A stretch of 64,000 bases of DNA. Source: Escherichia phage UE-S1. Every line of letters starts with the position of its first letter. The stretch's first letter is position 1. Below are positions 18,560-62,847 of the stretch, in pieces. The position numbers and the translations under genes were made by a program. Below the pieces are notes generated by a model. That model did no database searches and was not told where the DNA came from. It saw only the letters and a program-made list of their open reading frames with translations. The DNA lies in the sequence record ON568341.1; one strand, written 5' to 3'.

Positions 18560-18593
18560 CTTTTGATTCTCCATCATAAGGGAACATTTGATG

Positions 18594-18601
18594 TATTTAT
18601 A
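18594..18601 (-). promoter_or_regulatory. T4-type late promoter TATAAATA
   Basis: Plus strand tatttata, about 35 nt upstream of the refined start at 18559. Confidence 0.5.
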
Positions 18602-18604
18602 CGT

Positions 18605-18633
18605 GGGACAAAACACTTTTTGGTGCTATAATA
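18605..18633 (+). promoter_or_regulatory. Early sigma70-like promoter (GGGACA-N17-TGcTATAAT)
   Basis: GGGACA at 18605-18610 and extended -10 TGCTATAAT at 18625-18633, upstream of gp55. Confidence 0.5.
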
Positions 18634-22713: not shown

Positions 22714-22738
22714 AAGGGAGCCTTAGCTCCCTTTTTTT
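22714..22738 (+). terminator. Bidirectional rho-independent terminator
   Basis: AAGGGAGC-ctta-GCTCCCTT followed by TTTTTT. Overlaps the stop of the convergent minus-strand gene. Confidence 0.6.
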
Positions 22739-23214
22739 ACATCAACCATATTTAATTTACCGTCCTTAATCAGCTTTCTAGCTTGTTTTGCACGAGTAGT
22801 AGTGTTACTGCCAGGGACAACTCCGAACCCTTCCAGAATCTCGTTTTGCTGCGTTGCTGGGAGCCTTTTAAATTTATTAGTATCCACTGTTAGTGCCGTG
22901 TGATGTATAACTTGCTCTTCTGGTGGAATATTATTGTTCTTTTCAAGGTAGTCAGCAAGGTTGCGTAGTACTTCATGCAATGGCTTATCTGTTAAATGAC
23001 TAAGACAGCGTTTAAATGAATTTGCAACCCTTCCTTCCCATCCATTCACCTCATTTTGAAGAACCTGTCTACAATGTTGATTTCCACCATGATAGTGATC
23101 CAGAACTGGTTTAGTTATTTTTATGCCTATGATGGGGTCAATGCCATTTTGTTTATTTAGCAATTCAGTTCGATAGTTTGCAGCATCCTTACTATCTTTT
23201 AATCTTTTTTTCAT
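22723..23214 (-). CDS. gp49: Endonuclease VII-like Holliday-junction resolvase (T4 gp49 family)
   Basis: LDHYH, KFKRLPATQQNEILEGFG and the overall pattern parallel T4 endo VII LDHDH and EFSRLGKEEMMAEMLQRGF. The first Cys pair of the T4 zinc site appears absent. Confidence 0.55.
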   Translation of the reverse strand: MKKRLKDSKDAANYRTELLNKQNGIDPIIGIKITKPVLDHYHGGNQHCRQVLQNEVNGWEGRVANSFKRCLSHLTDKPLHEVLRNLADYLEKNNNIPPEEQVIHHTALTVDTNKFKRLPATQQNEILEGFGVVPGSNTTTRAKQARKLIKDGKLNMVDVKKGS

Positions 23215-23305
23215 AATTCCTCACCAAACTATTTGTCATCACAATATTTATAGATTAGTTATTTGCAATATTTTAAGTACTTAATGAATATTTTATAAAA
23301 ATAGT

Positions 23306-23333
23306 GAGACAACTTTAAAATTTGTGCTATAAT
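23306..23333 (+). promoter_or_regulatory. Early sigma70-like promoter (GAGACA-N16-TGcTATAAT) driving a non-coding locus
   Basis: GAGACA at 23306-23311 and TGCTATAAT at 23325-23333. Same architecture as the promoters of gp55, gp32, primase, rnh and the clamp-like gene. Confidence 0.5.
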
Positions 23334-23339
23334 ATTTGT

Positions 23340-23810
23340 TGTAGTAATGACAATCCTGTTGAATGCAGAAATGCATATAAATGAGAACCTGATCCTATCG
23401 AAAATGTAGATGGCAGATGAGCAGTTCAACAGTGCGATGAGCAGAAGAAACCCGTCAGATGTGGGCATAGTTTGAACCCCTCACGGCAATGCGGCTCAAT
23501 AAAGAACTCCGATAAGCATACAGAGAGTTCCTAGATAGACATATAAGGATCGCACCTTACCAGATTTGCTAAGGGAGTTTATTAAGTGATTTTAATAAAC
23601 AGCCTGAAGTTTGATTGTATAGACTTTCAGGTGAGTGTCAGGATGATTAAGACTGACGACCGTTGCATATGACCGTGATAGGGAGAAACCGAGCAACCCG
23701 CTTCCGTTTGCGATTGATCTTTTTACAATATAGATCCGTCCAAAATTCACGATACAATAAATGCTGAAACCATCAGCGTCAAGAAATAGAGACTTCATTG
23801 TCTCTTTTTT
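23340..23810 (+). ncRNA. Candidate structured non-coding RNA (about 470 nt), unknown class
   Basis: Bounded by a promoter and a terminator. No plus-strand ORF of 60 aa or more. Locally GC-enriched with several short stem-loops. No RBS-led ORF. Confidence 0.3.
23788..23810 (+). terminator. Rho-independent terminator closing the non-coding locus
   Basis: AGAGAC-ttcatt-GTCTCT followed by TTTTT. Confidence 0.45.
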
Positions 23811-24040
23811 ATTGTCTTCATTCCCCTGCGGGGGGATGAAAATGTCCTCAACAAATCCCGTCAAGTATTAAATCTTTTAAAGTTCTTTATAATTAATTTA
23901 ATGAAATGAATATGAGTTACGTAGTAACGAATATTCTTCAGCTAACGAATGAAATGAGTTAGATGAATCCAATAATATTAAAATTAATTCTTCCATAATT
24001 CAATTCAAATAATTCTGTAGTTTAATGAAAAAAAAAACCA

Positions 24041-24067
24041 GCAACAATGTGCTGGTCGTGTGGGATT
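24041..24067 (-). terminator. Rho-independent terminator of the minus-strand late operon
   Basis: On the minus strand: CCAGCA-cattgt-TGCTGG followed by TTTTTTTTT. Confidence 0.6.
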
Positions 24068-24276
24068 TAGTGCTTCTCGTTTTGTTTTTTAATTTTTTTA
24101 TTAAAAGACTTAACTAATAAGTCTCTATCTATTAATGGCATATTAAGAAGTGTTCCGTAATCAATATTATCCATATACACAGAACACTCCATTAGTGCAT
24201 TTTTGATTTCTGACTTATTCAGTTCTATCTCCTTCAGTACTTCTTGTATTTCTTCAGGAGATGACTGGAGAAGCAT
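24067..24276 (-). CDS. Small hypothetical protein (69 aa)
   Basis: ORF abutting the upstream 278-aa gene (stop and start overlap), followed by a terminator. Confidence 0.45.
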   Translation of the reverse strand: MLLQSSPEEIQEVLKEIELNKSEIKNALMECSVYMDNIDYGTLLNMPLIDRDLLVKSFNKKIKKQNEKH

Positions 24277-25112
24277 TACTCGAAAAAATGACTAGGATCA
24301 TATTTTAGTCCATCAATTTCCCATTGATGATTACATCCATCACACTCAACTTCCATACTATGCGATACTCCAATTTCAAGTACTTCATCCATTTTTTCAC
24401 GAATTAGTTTAAGAACTCCTTTTGATTGTTGTCCAAGCCACTCATTAATGAATTCTTTTTCAACTACTTCATCACCATCTGGAGTGATGATTTTTGCAAT
24501 AACTCCACCAATCATATCAAAGTTTAGTTGTGCCATATTTTCAAATACTTCAGAAAATATTTTTACTTTTTCGTCTTGTTCAATCTCAGCAGTTTCTAGA
24601 AACTTAGTTTTCTGCTGCTCACTGAACATACGCTCAGCAAACGATGAATATTCTTTCCATGTTAGTGGTCTAAACTCTAAACGTAGTCCATTATCTAAAT
24701 CAATAGATGGGATTTCTTCGAATGCTTGTGCAGTTTCAAGAAGATATGATAGATTACGTTCAAAACGACCTTCTTTTTCACATTCAGGACATACAGCGTT
24801 AATATCATATGTTTCTTCTTTAGATGCAACTTTAATAGCAATAAGAAGCATTTCAACGTCATTTACATATAACTCATCAGCATCAATAACATTAGGAACA
24901 CAGTTTTCAATGACACGTGATACTGCATCGCCGTTTAGTAACATATCTGGTGTATTGAGTGTCATTTCATCACGTGCACTACGTGCACAAACGCCACATT
25001 TGACACCTTTTGGACCTAAAACTCCGTCTTTATAAGGAATAATGCCGTTAGTAACTAATTTTGTACTGATCTCTTCAATTTTAGTGTACTTAGCAAGTGG
25101 ATTCATAGCCAT
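24276..25112 (-). CDS. Late protein with three CxxC zinc-ribbon motifs, unknown function
   Basis: 278 aa. CGVCARS, CPECEKEG and CDGCNHQWE motifs. GGAG RBS. TATAAA-like late boxes in the divergent region. Confidence 0.7.
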   Translation of the reverse strand: MAMNPLAKYTKIEEISTKLVTNGIIPYKDGVLGPKGVKCGVCARSARDEMTLNTPDMLLNGDAVSRVIENCVPNVIDADELYVNDVEMLLIAIKVASKEETYDINAVCPECEKEGRFERNLSYLLETAQAFEEIPSIDLDNGLRLEFRPLTWKEYSSFAERMFSEQQKTKFLETAEIEQDEKVKIFSEVFENMAQLNFDMIGGVIAKIITPDGDEVVEKEFINEWLGQQSKGVLKLIREKMDEVLEIGVSHSMEVECDGCNHQWEIDGLKYDPSHFFE

Positions 25113-45574: not shown

Positions 45575-45699
45575 GAAAATCTCCTTGTCGAATTTTGTGC
45601 AGGTTCATCCTGCTTAAAGTTATTTATCAAAAAATATTCCTAGCATTTAAATTTACTGGAATAATTAATGAATTTCTATGATATTATTTATCAAAAATG

Positions 45700-51960
<6,261 letters not shown>

Positions 51961-51976
51961 AGAGTGATATAATGAT

Positions 51977-52005: not shown

Positions 52006-52020
52006 AGAGTTAAAAAATAT

Positions 52021-52048
52021 GGGACAGTATAAAAACCTGTGCTATAAT
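52021..52048 (+). promoter_or_regulatory. Early sigma70-like promoter (GGGACA-N16-TGcTATAAT)
   Basis: GGGACA at 52021-52026 and TGCTATAAT at 52040-52048. Followed by an 88-nt AU-rich leader. Confidence 0.5.
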
Positions 52049-52136: not shown

Positions 52137-53189
52137 ATGAAATCTCTAGCTGAAATTCGTGCACACCTAAAAGCAGAACAAGAAAAAGCAGAAGCTCAAA
52201 AGAATGGTACATTTACTGGCGAGCGTAAAGCTGATTCGTTCTTAGCTTTCTGGAACGTACCTTATAACGAACCACTAAACCTACGTTTTCTACCAGATGC
52301 AGATGAGTCTAACCCATTCTTCTGGCGTGAACGTGACATGATTAACCTAACTTTCAATGGTGTAGTCGGTATGCACACTGATAAAGTTACCGTTCAAGTG
52401 CCTTGTAATGAAATGTGGGTTCCTAAATCTTGTCCGGTACTGAAAGAAGTACGTCAATGGTTCCAAAGTGCGAATGAAACAGGGAATGAAGAGCTAAAAG
52501 CAATGGCTGGTCGTTACTGGAAGAAGAAAACCTATCTAATGCAATGTTTTATTGCCCCTGATAGTGTTGCAGTAAAAGACGACATTGCACCAGAAAATCC
52601 AATTCGTCGAATTCTGGCTAACAAAGATATCTTTGATAAAGTTAAATCTATCCTACTAAACCCAGGTATCAAAGAATCACCAACTCACTACGTTCAAGGT
52701 CGTGATTTTGGTATTGTTAAAACTAAGAATGGTGGTGGTTATAATAGCTATGACATGTCACAATTCTCCATGTCAGAACGCCCACTCAACGAAGAAGAAC
52801 TTGCAGCAATTGAAAAATATGGTCTATTCAATCTAAATGATTTTATGCCAAAACAACCAACTCCAGAAGAGTTAAAAGCAATTGAAGAAATGTTTGAAGC
52901 ATCTGTAAATGGTGAAGCATATGATCCAGCACGTTGGGCATTTGCATATCGTCCAGCAGGTGTACCAAAACCTAATACTGGAACTGTTGCTGAATCAAAA
53001 CCAACTCCTGCTCCAGCACAACAAGAGTCAGTACCTGCATCAGTAGCACCTACTGCACCAGTTACACCAGCACCACAAGCTGCTCCAGTAACTCCAGCAG
53101 CTACTCCAGCAGTAACCACTCCTGAAGCACCAAAAGAACAACTATCTGCATCTGCACTAGTTGCTCGTTTGAAACAACAAGGTAAATAA
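52137..53189 (+). CDS. gp32: Single-stranded DNA-binding protein gp32
   Basis: LRFLPDADESNPFF parallels T4 gp32 IRFLPSKNDEQAPFA. GGGYNSYDMSQFSMSE parallels VSGFSNYDESKFLNQS. Pro/Ala/Thr-rich C-terminal tail. Confidence 0.85.
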   Translation: MKSLAEIRAHLKAEQEKAEAQKNGTFTGERKADSFLAFWNVPYNEPLNLRFLPDADESNPFFWRERDMINLTFNGVVGMHTDKVTVQVPCNEMWVPKSCPVLKEVRQWFQSANETGNEELKAMAGRYWKKKTYLMQCFIAPDSVAVKDDIAPENPIRRILANKDIFDKVKSILLNPGIKESPTHYVQGRDFGIVKTKNGGGYNSYDMSQFSMSERPLNEEELAAIEKYGLFNLNDFMPKQPTPEELKAIEEMFEASVNGEAYDPARWAFAYRPAGVPKPNTGTVAESKPTPAPAQQESVPASVAPTAPVTPAPQAAPVTPAATPAVTTPEAPKEQLSASALVARLKQQGK

Positions 53190-56491: not shown

Positions 56492-57976
56492 ATGAAAACT
56501 TGTAAGTTAACCTTATTGGATGAGGTGAATTGTAAATTTGAGGGACTTGATCCCTCAATTAGACAAAAGATGATTCGTGCAACTGAATATGTGTTACCAT
56601 ATGCAAAGTTCACACCAGCAGGACGTATTGGACGTTGGGATGGTAAAGTTCAGTTTATGAATTTAGGTGGAACAACTTATTATCATATGTTAGATAAGTT
56701 ATTGCCTATTCTTGATGAAGCTAAGATTGACATTGAATTGGTAGATCATAGGGTAGATTATGGATTTAAATTTGACCCTATTGATGAAGATATTTTTAGT
56801 GATGTTGTATTCGGTGCAGGACACCACATGGAAGGTAAATCCATAAAACTACGTGAACATCAAGTTAATGCGGTTAATGCATGTTTGGCTAATCCACACG
56901 GATTACTATTGGCAGCTACTGGTGCAGGTAAAACACTCATTACTGCTGCATTGTCAAAGAAAGTGCAAGAGTATGGACGTTCTGTTATAATAGTACCAAG
57001 TACTGACTTAGTACAACAAACATATGATGACTATATTATGTGTGGGTTGGATACTGGTATGTTCTATGGTTCACAAAAAGATTTTGGTCACCAACATACT
57101 ATTACAACGTGGCAATCATTTAACTCTCTATGGAAGAAAACCAAGAAAGGTGAAATTGAATTAACTGAACAAGATGTTAATGATTTTATCGATGGAGTAG
57201 TTTGTGTTATCGTTGATGAGTGTCAAGGTGCAGGTGGTGACGCATTAGTTCAAGTACTATCTAAAGTTATGAACAACGTACCATTACGTTGGGGTCTTAC
57301 TGGTACAATTCCGAAAGATCCGGTTGTCGCCGCAAAAATCAAATGTAATGTTGGTGATGTTATATTTAAAATAACTGCAAAGGAATTACAAGATAAACAG
57401 ATACTAAGTACATGTAATGTAAATTGCATAAAACTAAAAAGTAGTATGAAGTTTGCATCATATGCTGAAGAGTTGAAATACTTAGTAACTGACAGAGATA
57501 GAATGGCATATGTAGCATCATTGATATCTGCGTTATCTGAATCAGGAAACACTTTAGTTTTAGTAGATAGGCTTGAAGCGGGTGAGTTGTTATGTGAATT
57601 TTTAGGTATTCCCAAATCAGAATTTGTTCGTGGAGAAACTAAAAAGAAAGATCGAGAATCATCATATGGTGAAATTCGTTGGGCTGATAATAAAATACTT
57701 ATTGCGACATACGGTGTTGCCAGTACTGGTATCAGTATTTCAAGGTTATACAATGTAGTATTGATTGAGCCAGGAAAAAGTTTTGTAAGAACTATACAAT
57801 CAATCGGACGTGGATTACGCCGAGCAGAAGATAAAGACCATGTGGAAATATATGATATTAGTGGTTCTAATAAGTATAGTGCAAAACATTTACGTGAACG
57901 TTTAGCATATTATAAGGAAGCACAATATCCGCATAGTATAATAGATGTTAAAGATTGGGAAAACACAGCGGGATAA
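56492..57976 (+). CDS. uvsW: UvsW helicase (SF2)
   Basis: RIGRWDGKVQFMN parallels T4 UvsW RYGNWDGRIRLLD. Walker A ATGAGKT, DECQ box. ATYGVASTGISISRLYNVVL parallels ASYGVFSTGISVKNLHHVVL. Confidence 0.9.
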   Translation: MKTCKLTLLDEVNCKFEGLDPSIRQKMIRATEYVLPYAKFTPAGRIGRWDGKVQFMNLGGTTYYHMLDKLLPILDEAKIDIELVDHRVDYGFKFDPIDEDIFSDVVFGAGHHMEGKSIKLREHQVNAVNACLANPHGLLLAATGAGKTLITAALSKKVQEYGRSVIIVPSTDLVQQTYDDYIMCGLDTGMFYGSQKDFGHQHTITTWQSFNSLWKKTKKGEIELTEQDVNDFIDGVVCVIVDECQGAGGDALVQVLSKVMNNVPLRWGLTGTIPKDPVVAAKIKCNVGDVIFKITAKELQDKQILSTCNVNCIKLKSSMKFASYAEELKYLVTDRDRMAYVASLISALSESGNTLVLVDRLEAGELLCEFLGIPKSEFVRGETKKKDRESSYGEIRWADNKILIATYGVASTGISISRLYNVVLIEPGKSFVRTIQSIGRGLRRAEDKDHVEIYDISGSNKYSAKHLRERLAYYKEAQYPHSIIDVKDWENTAG

Positions 57977-57985
57977 ACCCGCTGT
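57965..57985 (+). terminator. Hairpin overlapping the uvsW stop (weak terminator)
   Basis: ACAGCGGG-ataaa-CCCGCTGT. Only a short T tract follows, then a TGATATAAT -10-like element. Confidence 0.3.
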
Positions 57986-58031
57986 TTGTGATATAATGTG
58001 TCATATGTAAACAACAAGGATGTGGAATAAA

Positions 58032-61843: not shown

Positions 61844-62821
61844 ATGGCTCATCACGGCGTGTTTATGTACCCTTATAATCAGGAAGTATCATTGGGCAAT
61901 TTTAATATGCCATTTAGTAATGAAAAACTAACTATCTATCGAGGGGCAAATAATAATTTATCTTTTACTGTTCACAACGCTGATGGAAAATATACTTTAT
62001 TGAAAGATAATGAATATCTTACATTTATGATTTTTGATGCACGAAATAATACTAAACTATTTGATGTTGTATTGGAAAAGCAAGAACCAAGTTGGTTATC
62101 AGAAAGTGGTCAAGCTCGTCAAACATTGGGAAATAAAAAGAAAGTATACTATGGATGTATTGTTCCAGCAGGAGTTATTCAAGATACCAGTCCTGGTTCT
62201 AAATATAGATGGAGCATTACTAAAGTAACTATGGATGGTTCACTTATAGAACCAACACAATATCTATACACTGGAATGAACTTTGAGGCATCAGCGGAGC
62301 TAATAATTTCAGACCAAGCAGCCCCAGTATTTGTTCCTAGTACTGAAATATCTACAGACAAAAATTCAGCCTGGACATCAATAAAGCGTTTATATAATGA
62401 ACCAATTGGTAATGGTATGATAGGTGAGTATGATATACTCGCATCAACTCCACTTCCAGCACAAATGCAGTATGGGTTGGTTGATGGGCTAAGTAGCATT
62501 GCAATCTATTTTGATAAATTCATTGGAAGAATACAGTTACAAGGATGTTTGTGTAATAATGTACCTAATGATAATGAAAATTATAAATGGTTTATAATCA
62601 AATTAGATGGAAAGGATTATATTGAAAATGGGATTGATATTGATGGATTTCCAAAAGAACTTGATGGTATTCAAGCATTTAATTTCAAAGGAAATTATAT
62701 GTGGTTGCGAATCGTAGTAGCAATTCATCCTAAAAATGTTCCAGTACCATACGACTATGCTGCTGTGCGAAAAGTGTATGATCCTTTATTAACTGTACCT
62801 AAAATTTTGATTCGCAGGTGA
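61844..62821 (+). CDS. Hypothetical late protein (about 326 aa)
   Basis: Start refined to ATG 61844 (MAHHGV...) after a GGAAGGA RBS. Confidence 0.6.
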   Translation: MAHHGVFMYPYNQEVSLGNFNMPFSNEKLTIYRGANNNLSFTVHNADGKYTLLKDNEYLTFMIFDARNNTKLFDVVLEKQEPSWLSESGQARQTLGNKKKVYYGCIVPAGVIQDTSPGSKYRWSITKVTMDGSLIEPTQYLYTGMNFEASAELIISDQAAPVFVPSTEISTDKNSAWTSIKRLYNEPIGNGMIGEYDILASTPLPAQMQYGLVDGLSSIAIYFDKFIGRIQLQGCLCNNVPNDNENYKWFIIKLDGKDYIENGIDIDGFPKELDGIQAFNFKGNYMWLRIVVAIHPKNVPVPYDYAAVRKVYDPLLTVPKILIRR

Positions 62822-62847
62822 GACAAAATTAGAAGGTGTGCTATAAT
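62820..62847 (+). promoter_or_regulatory. Early sigma70-like promoter (GAGACA-N16-TGcTATAAT)
   Basis: GAGACA at 62820-62825 and TGCTATAAT at 62839-62847, upstream of the primase gene. Confidence 0.5.

Follow-up and report, generated by a model that had tools for sequence, protein, structure and literature searches.

The window analysed here is a stretch of 64,000 nucleotides from Escherichia phage UE-S1 (ON568341.1), about 94% identical to the Asteriusvirus jumbo coliphages, e.g. 121Q, PBECO4 and phAPEC6. Between the endonuclease VII (endoVII) gene and a baseplate-hub operon it contained an 850-bp unannotated gap, in which we found a gene of about 525 nt for a conserved, non-coding and intricately folded RNA. 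The flanking genes were complete and on the minus strand, and an AT-rich spacer of 130-170 bp separated the terminator of the baseplate-hub operon from the RNA gene. The locus was arranged as follows.

22723-23214, minus strand: endoVII gene, one flank of the 850-bp gap
23306-23333, plus strand: promoter found by consensus scan, with a -35-like GAGACA, a 16-nt spacer and the extended -10 TGCTATAAT
23341-23866, plus strand: RNA gene, its 5' end placed from the promoter and its 3' end at the last block conserved in all members; it may extend slightly further
24036-24057, minus strand: strong intrinsic terminator (8-bp stem and T8) ending the baseplate-hub/small-ORF (open reading frame) operon
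24067-25112, minus strand: small ORF and baseplate-hub gene (Pfam T4_baseplate), the other flank of the gap, convergent to the RNA gene

An earlier note written from the letters of the sequence (hereafter the original prediction) had proposed at this place a novel structured RNA of about 470 nt between a promoter and a terminator. Its promoter, GAGACA-N16-TGcTATAAT, was present on the plus strand at 23306-23333, and the enrichment in G+C was also seen, at 0.40-0.42 in the RNA interval vs 0.245-0.29 in the flanks. The lack of a plus-strand ORF of 60 aa or more was confirmed, and the longest ones within 23340-23870 were 28-36 aa. The extent was underestimated: the conserved unit spanned from about 23341 to at least 23866, past the end given at 23812, and homology detected by nhmmer and blastn reached 23341-23897. 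The locus is not unique, being one member of a multi-copy paralogous family.

By blastn the interval was matched in 72 jumbo-phage records. Homologues in Asteriusvirus were 85-95% identical, and those in the Salmonella phages Munch and 7t3 and in Erwinia, Serratia BF, Yersinia fHe-Yen9-04, Cronobacter GAP32, Pectobacterium CBB and Xanthomonas XaC1 phages were 71-80% identical; in Klebsiella RaK2 and K64-1 the core segment only was matched. The element was positioned after endoVII in most of these phages. A search with the core pattern returned 56 places in IMG/VR, several per genome and all full-length, together with 117 metagenome contigs, about 85 of which were true full-length members by nhmmer. 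Family elements were about 490-570 nt long. The same pattern gave 12 matches in bacterial assemblies, nine looking like chance and three real, and none of 5,426 complete E. coli genomes or 72,556 plasmids had a family member. The family occurs in phages only. The three real matches were on a 185-kb contig of Silvania hatchlandensis (L073), a 299-kb contig of Enterobacteriaceae bacterium RIT714 (L079) and a 2.8-kb contig of the metagenome-assembled genome Clostridium sp. UBA10317 (L080). The two large contigs probably represent jumbo-phage genomes, either carried along with the isolate or assembled together with it, and the Clostridium label on the small one looks like a binning error.

Fold prediction of the single sequence, one of the checks proposed in the original prediction, gave a signal of modest size (z = -3.2 on the plus strand and -2.2 on the minus strand), and the case therefore rests on comparative data. 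In the alignments, invariant blocks alternated with variable stems rich in compensatory changes, and RNAalifold predicted 65 pairs, 43 of them with changes on both sides. A structure was also built by hand from column-pair statistics and tested on 55 sequences, where 87.4% of the cells were paired vs 39-45% in the controls. Double-change cells numbered 899 in this structure vs 112-274 in slid controls, in which the pairing partners were shifted by 1-3 columns; none of 500 shuffles reached the observed values. For the core region, examined in 74 non-redundant sequences (pairwise identity at most 93%), the figures were 91.2% paired vs 38-43% in slid controls, with Hi, Hj, PK1 and PK2 (listed below) at 99-100%. 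The compensatory change that marks a structured non-coding RNA gene was thus found, at 87-91% paired vs about 40% in controls, and the conserved secondary structure that was to be looked for in related phages appeared as massive covariation, secondary as well as tertiary.

No fewer than 18 helices made up the family fold, together with five pairings of the long-range or pseudoknot type, and compensatory change in them was heavy; covariation was seen in the leader helix and in each of the pseudoknots PK1, PK2, PK3 and PK4. In our structure model of 123 bp, every pair was canonical in the window. About 70 nucleotides, clustered in junctions and loops, were invariant, and about 150 were conserved at 90% or more; for GACCGTT and GAAAC.G...AACCCGC the invariance is partly produced by the retrieval pattern. 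G-U pairs numbered 233 vs 15 A-C mismatches, and therefore the plus-strand RNA is the functional form.

The RNA gene is overlapped by a 90-aa minus-strand ORF (23592-23864). Coding potential, including that of this ORF, was rejected because the frame was not conserved: in the search for an intact ORF among homologues, 94 of 106 members had stops in all frames of the region, and its length was spread evenly over the three values modulo 3. None of the blastn-matched phage records carried an RNA annotation of the element. GenBank coding sequence (CDS) calls from automated annotation ran across the RNA gene, with one to four small hypothetical proteins on either strand (SHEFM2K, E9.1, JP4, BAU.Micro_ELP-22, SD-*, Hallingskeid, Kaldavass, ORF245 of RaK2 and others), and in Hallingskeid an upstream start lengthened endoVII. 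The small CDSs annotated over the RNA gene are very likely false genes.

The RNA is composed of the following parts, all on the plus strand.

23356-62: leader strand CUGUUGA, pairing with the Hb loop (23426-32)
23363-76: small GAAA-loop hairpin directly after the leader strand
23389-23421: hairpin Ha, with near-invariant UCGAAAAUGUAG in its loop, then GAUGAG
23421-35: hairpin Hb, the loop of which binds the leader strand
23438-42 with 23494-98: helix Hc, enclosing AAGAAACCCGU, helix Hd and conserved CACGGCAAUGCGGC
23452-55 with 23483-86: helix Hd, almost invariant
23489-91 (AUG) with 23540-42 (CAU): PK3, 97% paired, in AUG/CAU, ACA/UGU and AUA/UAU versions
23504-23530: variable hairpin He, 98% paired, 5/5 pairs covarying
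23515-18 (AGCA, He loop) with 23567-70 (UGCU): PK4, tertiary pairing identified by covariation
23531-23577: conserved junction GAUAGACAUAUAAGG..CCUUACC..UAAGGGAG
23544-59: hairpin Hf, within this central junction
23577-23600: site-A hairpin, 11-26 double changes per pair in the 74 sequences
23602-32: hairpin Hg, CCTGAAGT..ACTTTCAGG, 16-44 double changes per pair in the 74 sequences
23614-23620 (AUUGUAU, Hg loop) with 23752-58 (AUACAAU): PK1, 7 bp, identified by covariation
23636-23658: hairpin Hh, GTCAG..CTGAC, 94% paired, 5/6 pairs changing on both sides
23659-23751: most conserved core of the RNA, ACGACCGUUGC and the three-way junction Hi/Hj/Hk
23662-66 (GUUGC, in ACGACCGUUGC) with 23693-97 (GCAAC, Hj loop): PK2
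23674-78 with 23747-51: helix Hi of the three-way junction
23681-23705: hairpin Hj, with a largely invariant 15-nt loop in which AAAC-G---AACCCG is fixed
23708-43: hairpin Hk of the three-way junction
23711-23740: optional hairpin module GCGAUUGAUC..UACAAUAUAGAUCCGUCC (also given as GCGAUUGAU..UACAAUAUAGAUCCGUCC), inside Hk
23763-23783: hairpin Hl with repeat motif #1 (U-CAG-CGUCA-A, 23773-82), in all classes with differing sequence
23788-23811: hairpin Hm, AGAGAC/GUCUCU and U6, terminator-like and optional (terminator scan)
23817-23840: hairpin Hn, UUCAUUCCCC/GGGGGGAUGAA, containing GGGGGGAUG, in all members
23841-23866: conserved 3' tail CUCAACAAAUCCCGUCAAG with repeat motif #2 (23856-64), in every member

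At the 5' end, the pairing of the leader with the Hb loop formed 8-9 bp in 58 of 94 members and occurred in at least ten distinct compensatory versions. The stem of Ha (helix 1) was 93% paired, with both-side changes in 7/8 pairs, and the GAUGAG after it was near-invariant, UGAG being invariant and GUUGAG occurring in a minority. Hc was 99% paired, with double changes in 16, 12 and 21 sequences at three pairs. The PK4 columns had a mutual information of 0.89-0.97 with exchanges among G-C, U-A and A-U, and UAAGGGA in the central junction was invariant. PK1 was 99% paired with 7/7 pairs covarying and double changes in up to 43 of the 74 sequences; its strand was class-specific, reading AUUGUAU, GUUCAUGU, GCUGAAUU or GGUCGAAU, each with a fitting partner. 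In the core, GACCGUUGC paired with the 15-nt loop of Hj to form PK2, and Hi, Hj and PK2 were 99.7-100% paired in the 74 sequences with 10-41 double changes per pair. Covariance model R1 scored 121 bits on the core of the window (E = 2e-25).

Two stem-loops named in the original prediction, CCTGAAGT..ACTTTCAGG (23603-23631) and GTCAG..CTGAC (23637-23657), were those with strong covariation among homologues. A third, CCCCtgcgGGGG (CCCC..GGGG, 23823-23834), is real as well; it lies beyond the end then proposed and varies between C-G and U-G only. The direct repeat GATGAGCAG was present in two copies (23416-23424 and 23436-23444), of which only the first GAUGAG is kept in the family, the second being a strand of a variable helix; the repeat is therefore incidental to this lineage. 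The optional module inside Hk was found at site A, after UAAGGGAGUU, in other members (GAP32-type), and by blastn window positions 23707-48 matched GAP32 and CBB at this alternative site. Such two-site placement is the behaviour of a peripheral element.

The 5' end is supported by a conserved extended -10 and the covarying leader helix. In most members the extended -10 TGNTATAAT lay 47-95 nt upstream of the first conserved loop, being perfect in 83 of 101 family members and matching at seven or more of its eight positions in 95 of 101. The sequence pattern is that of a sigma-70-type promoter, TGnTATAAT with a -35-like hexamer 16-18 bp upstream, at a conserved position, and transcription would start near 23341, as placed from the promoter. 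The class GRGACA-N15/16-TGNTATAAT recurred in the window, by pattern match, at 18624 (18592-18632), 45718 (45686-45726), 51965 (51933-51973), 52040 (52008-52048), 57989 (57957-57997) and 62839 (62807-62847). Among other genes it preceded an RNase H-like 5'-3' exonuclease gene (45732-46775) and the gp32-like gene (52137-53189), the latter with two tandem copies, and the architecture shared with gp32 was indeed a claim of the original prediction.

The 3' end is less simple. The claimed hairpin and T-run (AGAGAC-TTCATT-GTCTCT and T6) exists at 23788-23811 and follows the intrinsic-terminator pattern of a G+C hairpin with a U-run; terminator-like sites numbered 4 in the 1-kb region vs 0.4 expected. 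Its role as the boundary of the gene did not hold up equally well. The Hm columns were occupied in only 23-26 of 55 members, 99% paired and covarying where present (helix 22), and the following 55 nt (Hn and the tail) were kept in all, including RaK2 and a divergent metagenomic subfamily. Because the hairpin is optional while these 55 nt are universally kept, it is probably not the functional 3' boundary. In Hn, the pairs (helix 23) alternated between C-G and U-G only, and GGGGGGAUG was largely invariant, its four G's without exception and the remainder at 90% conservation or more. The functional 3' end would lie at or beyond 23866, and a shorter isoform ending near 23811 is possible. Some other paralog classes had a hairpin and U6-7 after the promoter and before the conserved core, e.g. 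GGACG..CCGUCC-UUUUUU (L013 about 690-740, L038 about 2820-2860, and L045). These hairpins stand ahead of the conserved core and therefore are not efficient terminators in those transcripts; they may be either read through or attenuators or Hfq-type modules.

The segments 23773-82 and 23856-64 both read A-Y-C-(A)-N-CGUCA-R and were kept identical, not complementary. The pyrimidine (columns 23773/23856) was U/U in 40 sequences and C/C in 26, never mixed, the purine was G/G in 36 and A/A in 29, and all four pyrimidine-purine combinations were found. The rare variants CUUCAAG, GUGUCA and ACGAAG also changed in both copies together, and the pyrimidine differed between paralogs of one genome. A complementary column in cis was looked for in the alignments and not found; candidate cis partners of the CGUCA motifs and the 3' tail (GAUGAG, the leader, and the ACGGC/GCGGC pair) had no covariation support. 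The repeats may be two equivalent docking or processing sites, may form alternative pairings or may be recognised by a common trans partner.

Genomes contained two to five anciently diverged paralog classes at dispersed sites; clustering showed the classes to be conserved between genera, each represented once per genome. GAP32, CBB, Serratia BF and Yersinia fHe-Yen9-04 had one member each of up to five classes, 121Q had three copies (at 193, 247 and 327 kb) and RaK2 two. The copies were intergenic and each had its own promoter, those of 121Q lying between complete ORFs. The window carried exactly one family copy by nhmmer and by R1 with filters off, the latter matching at 23598-23761 only; the "4-5 places per record" seen in blastn were paralogs elsewhere in the genomes and promoter matches, not extra window copies. 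When 1,280 flanking ORFs from 149 loci were clustered, no protein family common to the neighbourhoods of the paralog classes was found.

Several further observations concern the surroundings and diversity of the family. A family of proteins of about 325 aa (MAKIAKTKTDNIGG...; L168 1657-2634 and 13 other loci) was on the upstream side of some RNA copies and on the downstream side of others, while all other neighbour families had fixed positions; the gene is possibly mobile, e.g. that of a homing endonuclease. The RNA locus was a hotspot of gene gain and rearrangement across phages: in Munch (L002 513-1469) a 318-aa gene was inserted between endoVII and the RNA, in fHe-Yen9-04 (L012 1428-1976) an adenine methyltransferase came after the RNA, and in Kaldavass (L013) and RaK2 (L005) the RNA was in wholly different neighbourhoods, the RaK2 copy following a sigma-factor gene. 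On the 3' side of the RNA gene the window contained small hairpins (GTTAC-gta-GTAAC at 23916-23928 and CTAAC-gaatgaaatga-GTTAG at 23942-23962) and the motif ACGAA(T/A)ATTCTT(T)GAC; related hairpins with ACGAAGTGA-type loops, and AAAATTCTTTGACA, recurred 3' of other members in other genomes (L003, L021, L054, L069, L006, L073). Possible roles for these elements are those of a phage promoter or a processing signal, or they may still belong to the transcript. The divergent subfamily, from OER*/OEQ* metagenome contigs (L098, L099, L101, L113, L140, L142, L143, L196), matched the other members over the 3' half of the RNA, between UAAAGGGAG and GGGGGGAUGGAAA and including the GACCGUUGC/GAAACAGGGCAACCCGC core. 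It differed in the 5' half, both repeat motifs were ACGAAG, and an additional conserved 3' hairpin GUGCUGCUAAAGCAC was found.

In the comparison with known RNAs, no match at gathering thresholds was obtained in the 64-kb window with the 4227 models of Rfam 15, so that the proposed covariance-model check ended without a matching family. At E up to 10, the region 23100-24100 gave only promoter- or terminator-like sRNA fragments far below threshold, and nine homologous loci had no Rfam match inside the element. The view that this is not a tRNA, tmRNA, RNase P RNA or group I/II intron was upheld, with neither Rfam models nor ARAGORN recognising it as any of these; ARAGORN scans found no tRNA or tmRNA genes in the window or at the 56 family loci. 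An intron was rejected on the absence of flanking exons, the promoter lying directly upstream and the flanking genes being complete, and a group I/II catalytic core on the absence of an intron-model match at E up to 10 and a helix order that misfits by eye. Group I introns and RNase P RNA are similar to the family in size, in a core of junction nucleotides, in long-range pseudoknots and in optional hairpins at differing sites, but their helix order, judged by eye, does not map onto this fold. A HEARO or omega-RNA-type guide of a neighbouring nuclease or transposase was rejected, as no adjacent protein gene is conserved. A description of the family was not found in full-text literature searches, nor was a transcriptome of any phage carrying it, and the RNA family is apparently undescribed. 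The novelty proposed in the original prediction is strongly supported by the conserved fold, the covariation and the lack of an Rfam family.

Among free-standing non-coding RNA genes, ROOL and GOLLD are alike in being large (about 0.5-0.8 kb), intricate, pseudoknotted and phage-carried. They differ in that their Rfam models have no sequence or structure match to this family, in that they often lie near tRNA genes, which are absent from the 56 family loci and the window, and in their hosts, which are here Enterobacteria-type jumbo myoviruses with 2-5 diverged paralogs per genome. To our knowledge, natural RNAs longer than about 300 nt with such a density of conserved tertiary structure are very rare, and most known ones are ribozymes or major unsolved puzzles (OLE, GOLLD, ROOL, raiA).

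The nearest published parallel comes from PA5oct (Lood et al. 2020), a Pseudomonas jumbo phage and distant relative of the RaK2/121Q/GAP32 clade, in which RNA-seq defined four ORF-free transcribed regions, ncRNA001-004, of 236-619 nt (PMC7318152). All four are on the plus strand and two are very abundant, with 1-5% of the phage reads (PMC7318152); ncRNA004 lies between opposite-strand genes, as here. Homology to these RNAs was undetectable by nhmmer and by covariance model R1 with filters off. ncRNA004 (L201 617-1235, 619 nt) ends in a pyrimidine/G-run hairpin, UUUCCUUCCC-AAAC-GGGGAGGAAA, which recalls Hn, with no homology detected.

At the level of sequence comparison, we regard as established that the locus encodes a conserved, promoter-equipped, non-coding plus-strand RNA with a compact multi-pseudoknot fold and with several paralogs retained. 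As to function, together with the generic claim of a structured RNA, we consider it rather probable that the gene is free-standing and that its RNA, of about 525 nt, acts in trans and is catalytic (ribozyme-like) or serves as a scaffold, because its size and complexity resemble those of ribozymes, ROOL and GOLLD, its classes are retained independently and no downstream cis gene is present in the window. Host RNA polymerase would start near 23341 from a promoter class common with replication genes, and the RNA would fold into a compact multi-pseudoknotted body with the 5' leader locked into the Hb loop. The hairpin and U6 at 23788-23811 would be at least partly read through, which would leave the G-run hairpin and CGUCAAG tail in the functional RNA. 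Once made, the RNA would work in trans, either as a ribozyme or by forming the core of an assembly, be it a ribonucleoprotein or one of RNA, and the paralog classes would have separate, non-redundant roles. More tentatively, the family might be a new class of phage ribozyme or self-assembling RNA machine, in which 2-5 specialised paralogs cooperate, e.g. as subunits or as enzymes for different substrates, and the CGUCA repeats are two equivalent reaction, docking or processing sites.

Several points weigh against a trans-acting catalytic or scaffold RNA. That the gene yields a discrete transcript is itself predicted from the letters, and structural complexity suggests catalysis or assembly without proving either. 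Efficient termination at U6 in this copy would give a main product without the 3' tail, and the candidate tail-body contacts (UGA/UCA, GGGA/UCCC) show no variation, or none beyond an alternation of G-C with G-U. All copies within a genome are on one strand, which could point to a cis role; as evidence for such a role we found this co-orientation uninformative, about three quarters of the genes being on the same strand.

Self-assembly in the strict sense, into a homo- or hetero-oligomeric cage or scaffold in which an intermolecular PK1 keeps the classes from mixing, is unlikely. It would fit the class-specific PK1, where intra- and intermolecular pairing would leave the same covariation, and the several paralogs retained per genome; ROOL and GOLLD are reported to be phage-associated and oligomeric (10.1101/2024.12.08.627333). 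The sequences offered no evidence for intermolecular pairing, a conserved palindromic loop was not found, and the family shares neither homology nor nearby tRNA genes with ROOL and GOLLD.

We consider very unlikely a cis-regulatory leader, that is, a very large riboswitch or attenuator the fold of which senses a ligand or factor and controls read-through of the hairpin-U6. About half of the members do have a terminator-like hairpin after the conserved body, one class has motif #1 as the 5' arm of the hairpin (GUCAGA..UCUGAC and U8), and most other paralog classes have same-strand downstream genes. The genes that come next in the window are convergent, and no same-strand downstream gene exists, as in the whole endoVII-linked class, so there is nothing to regulate; the convergent genes of the window have their own terminator (24036-24057), and the downstream genes vary between classes. 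The hairpin is also missing in many members that retain the 3' tail, and conserved sequence runs past the terminator.

A decoy is highly improbable as well. An abundant early RNA might serve in anti-defence or host takeover by sequestering a host protein or RNA, e.g. a nuclease, Hfq or the ribosome, which would agree with an early-type promoter on each copy, with hairpin and U-tract modules, with the Shine-Dalgarno-like UAAGGGAG and GGGGGGAUG and with the abundance of the two unrelated PA5oct RNAs mentioned above. Yet decoys seldom need an intricate conserved tertiary structure, and a single host target hardly explains five anciently diverged classes.

There is a slim chance that the RNA is a replication-origin transcript, a structured pre-primer with several origins per 350-kb genome and with the CGTCA repeats as DNA sites. 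ColE1 RNA II and the T4 origin R-loop transcripts are likewise promoter-driven, non-coding, structured and about 0.5 kb long, and T4-type phages use promoter transcripts at several origins. The dispersed copies all on one strand, the promoter class common to the gp32-like and RNase H-like genes, the G-run near the 3' end and the direct-repeat pair kept identical are in line with this idea. Unlike in those RNAs, what is constrained here is an elaborate tertiary fold in which many bases of loops and junctions never vary; five covarying tertiary pairings and about 70 invariant nucleotides far exceed the needs of a primer RNA, and covariation with G-U tolerance shows that selection acts on the folded RNA. 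The copies share the general strand bias of the genes, no conserved AT-rich unwinding element or RNase H site was identified, and the repeat pyrimidine differs among the paralogs of one genome, which argues against a single DNA-binding protein.

A known ribozyme, mobile intron, RNase P RNA, tmRNA, coding gene, pseudogene or DNA-only element is largely refuted: the element is multi-copy, phage-borne, pseudoknotted, about 0.5 kb long and superficially intron-like, with small hypothetical ORFs annotated across it in several GenBank records, but neither the window nor the nine homologous loci have an Rfam family at E up to 10, ARAGORN was empty, each copy has its own promoter and complete flanking genes and hence no exons, the ORFs are not conserved, and the excess of G-U over A-C excludes a purely DNA-level palindrome.

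The family would add a new class of large structured RNA, and would do so in tractable, culturable coliphages (121Q, PBECO4, phAPEC6) as well as in relatives infecting Klebsiella, Salmonella, Erwinia, Yersinia and Cronobacter. For structure modelling, over 100 diverse sequences are at hand, and the paralog classes are clear and separately deletable. The finding also corrects genome annotation, hypothetical ORFs having been placed over the region in many GenBank records. It further points to an investment by jumbo phages in several large RNAs of their own.

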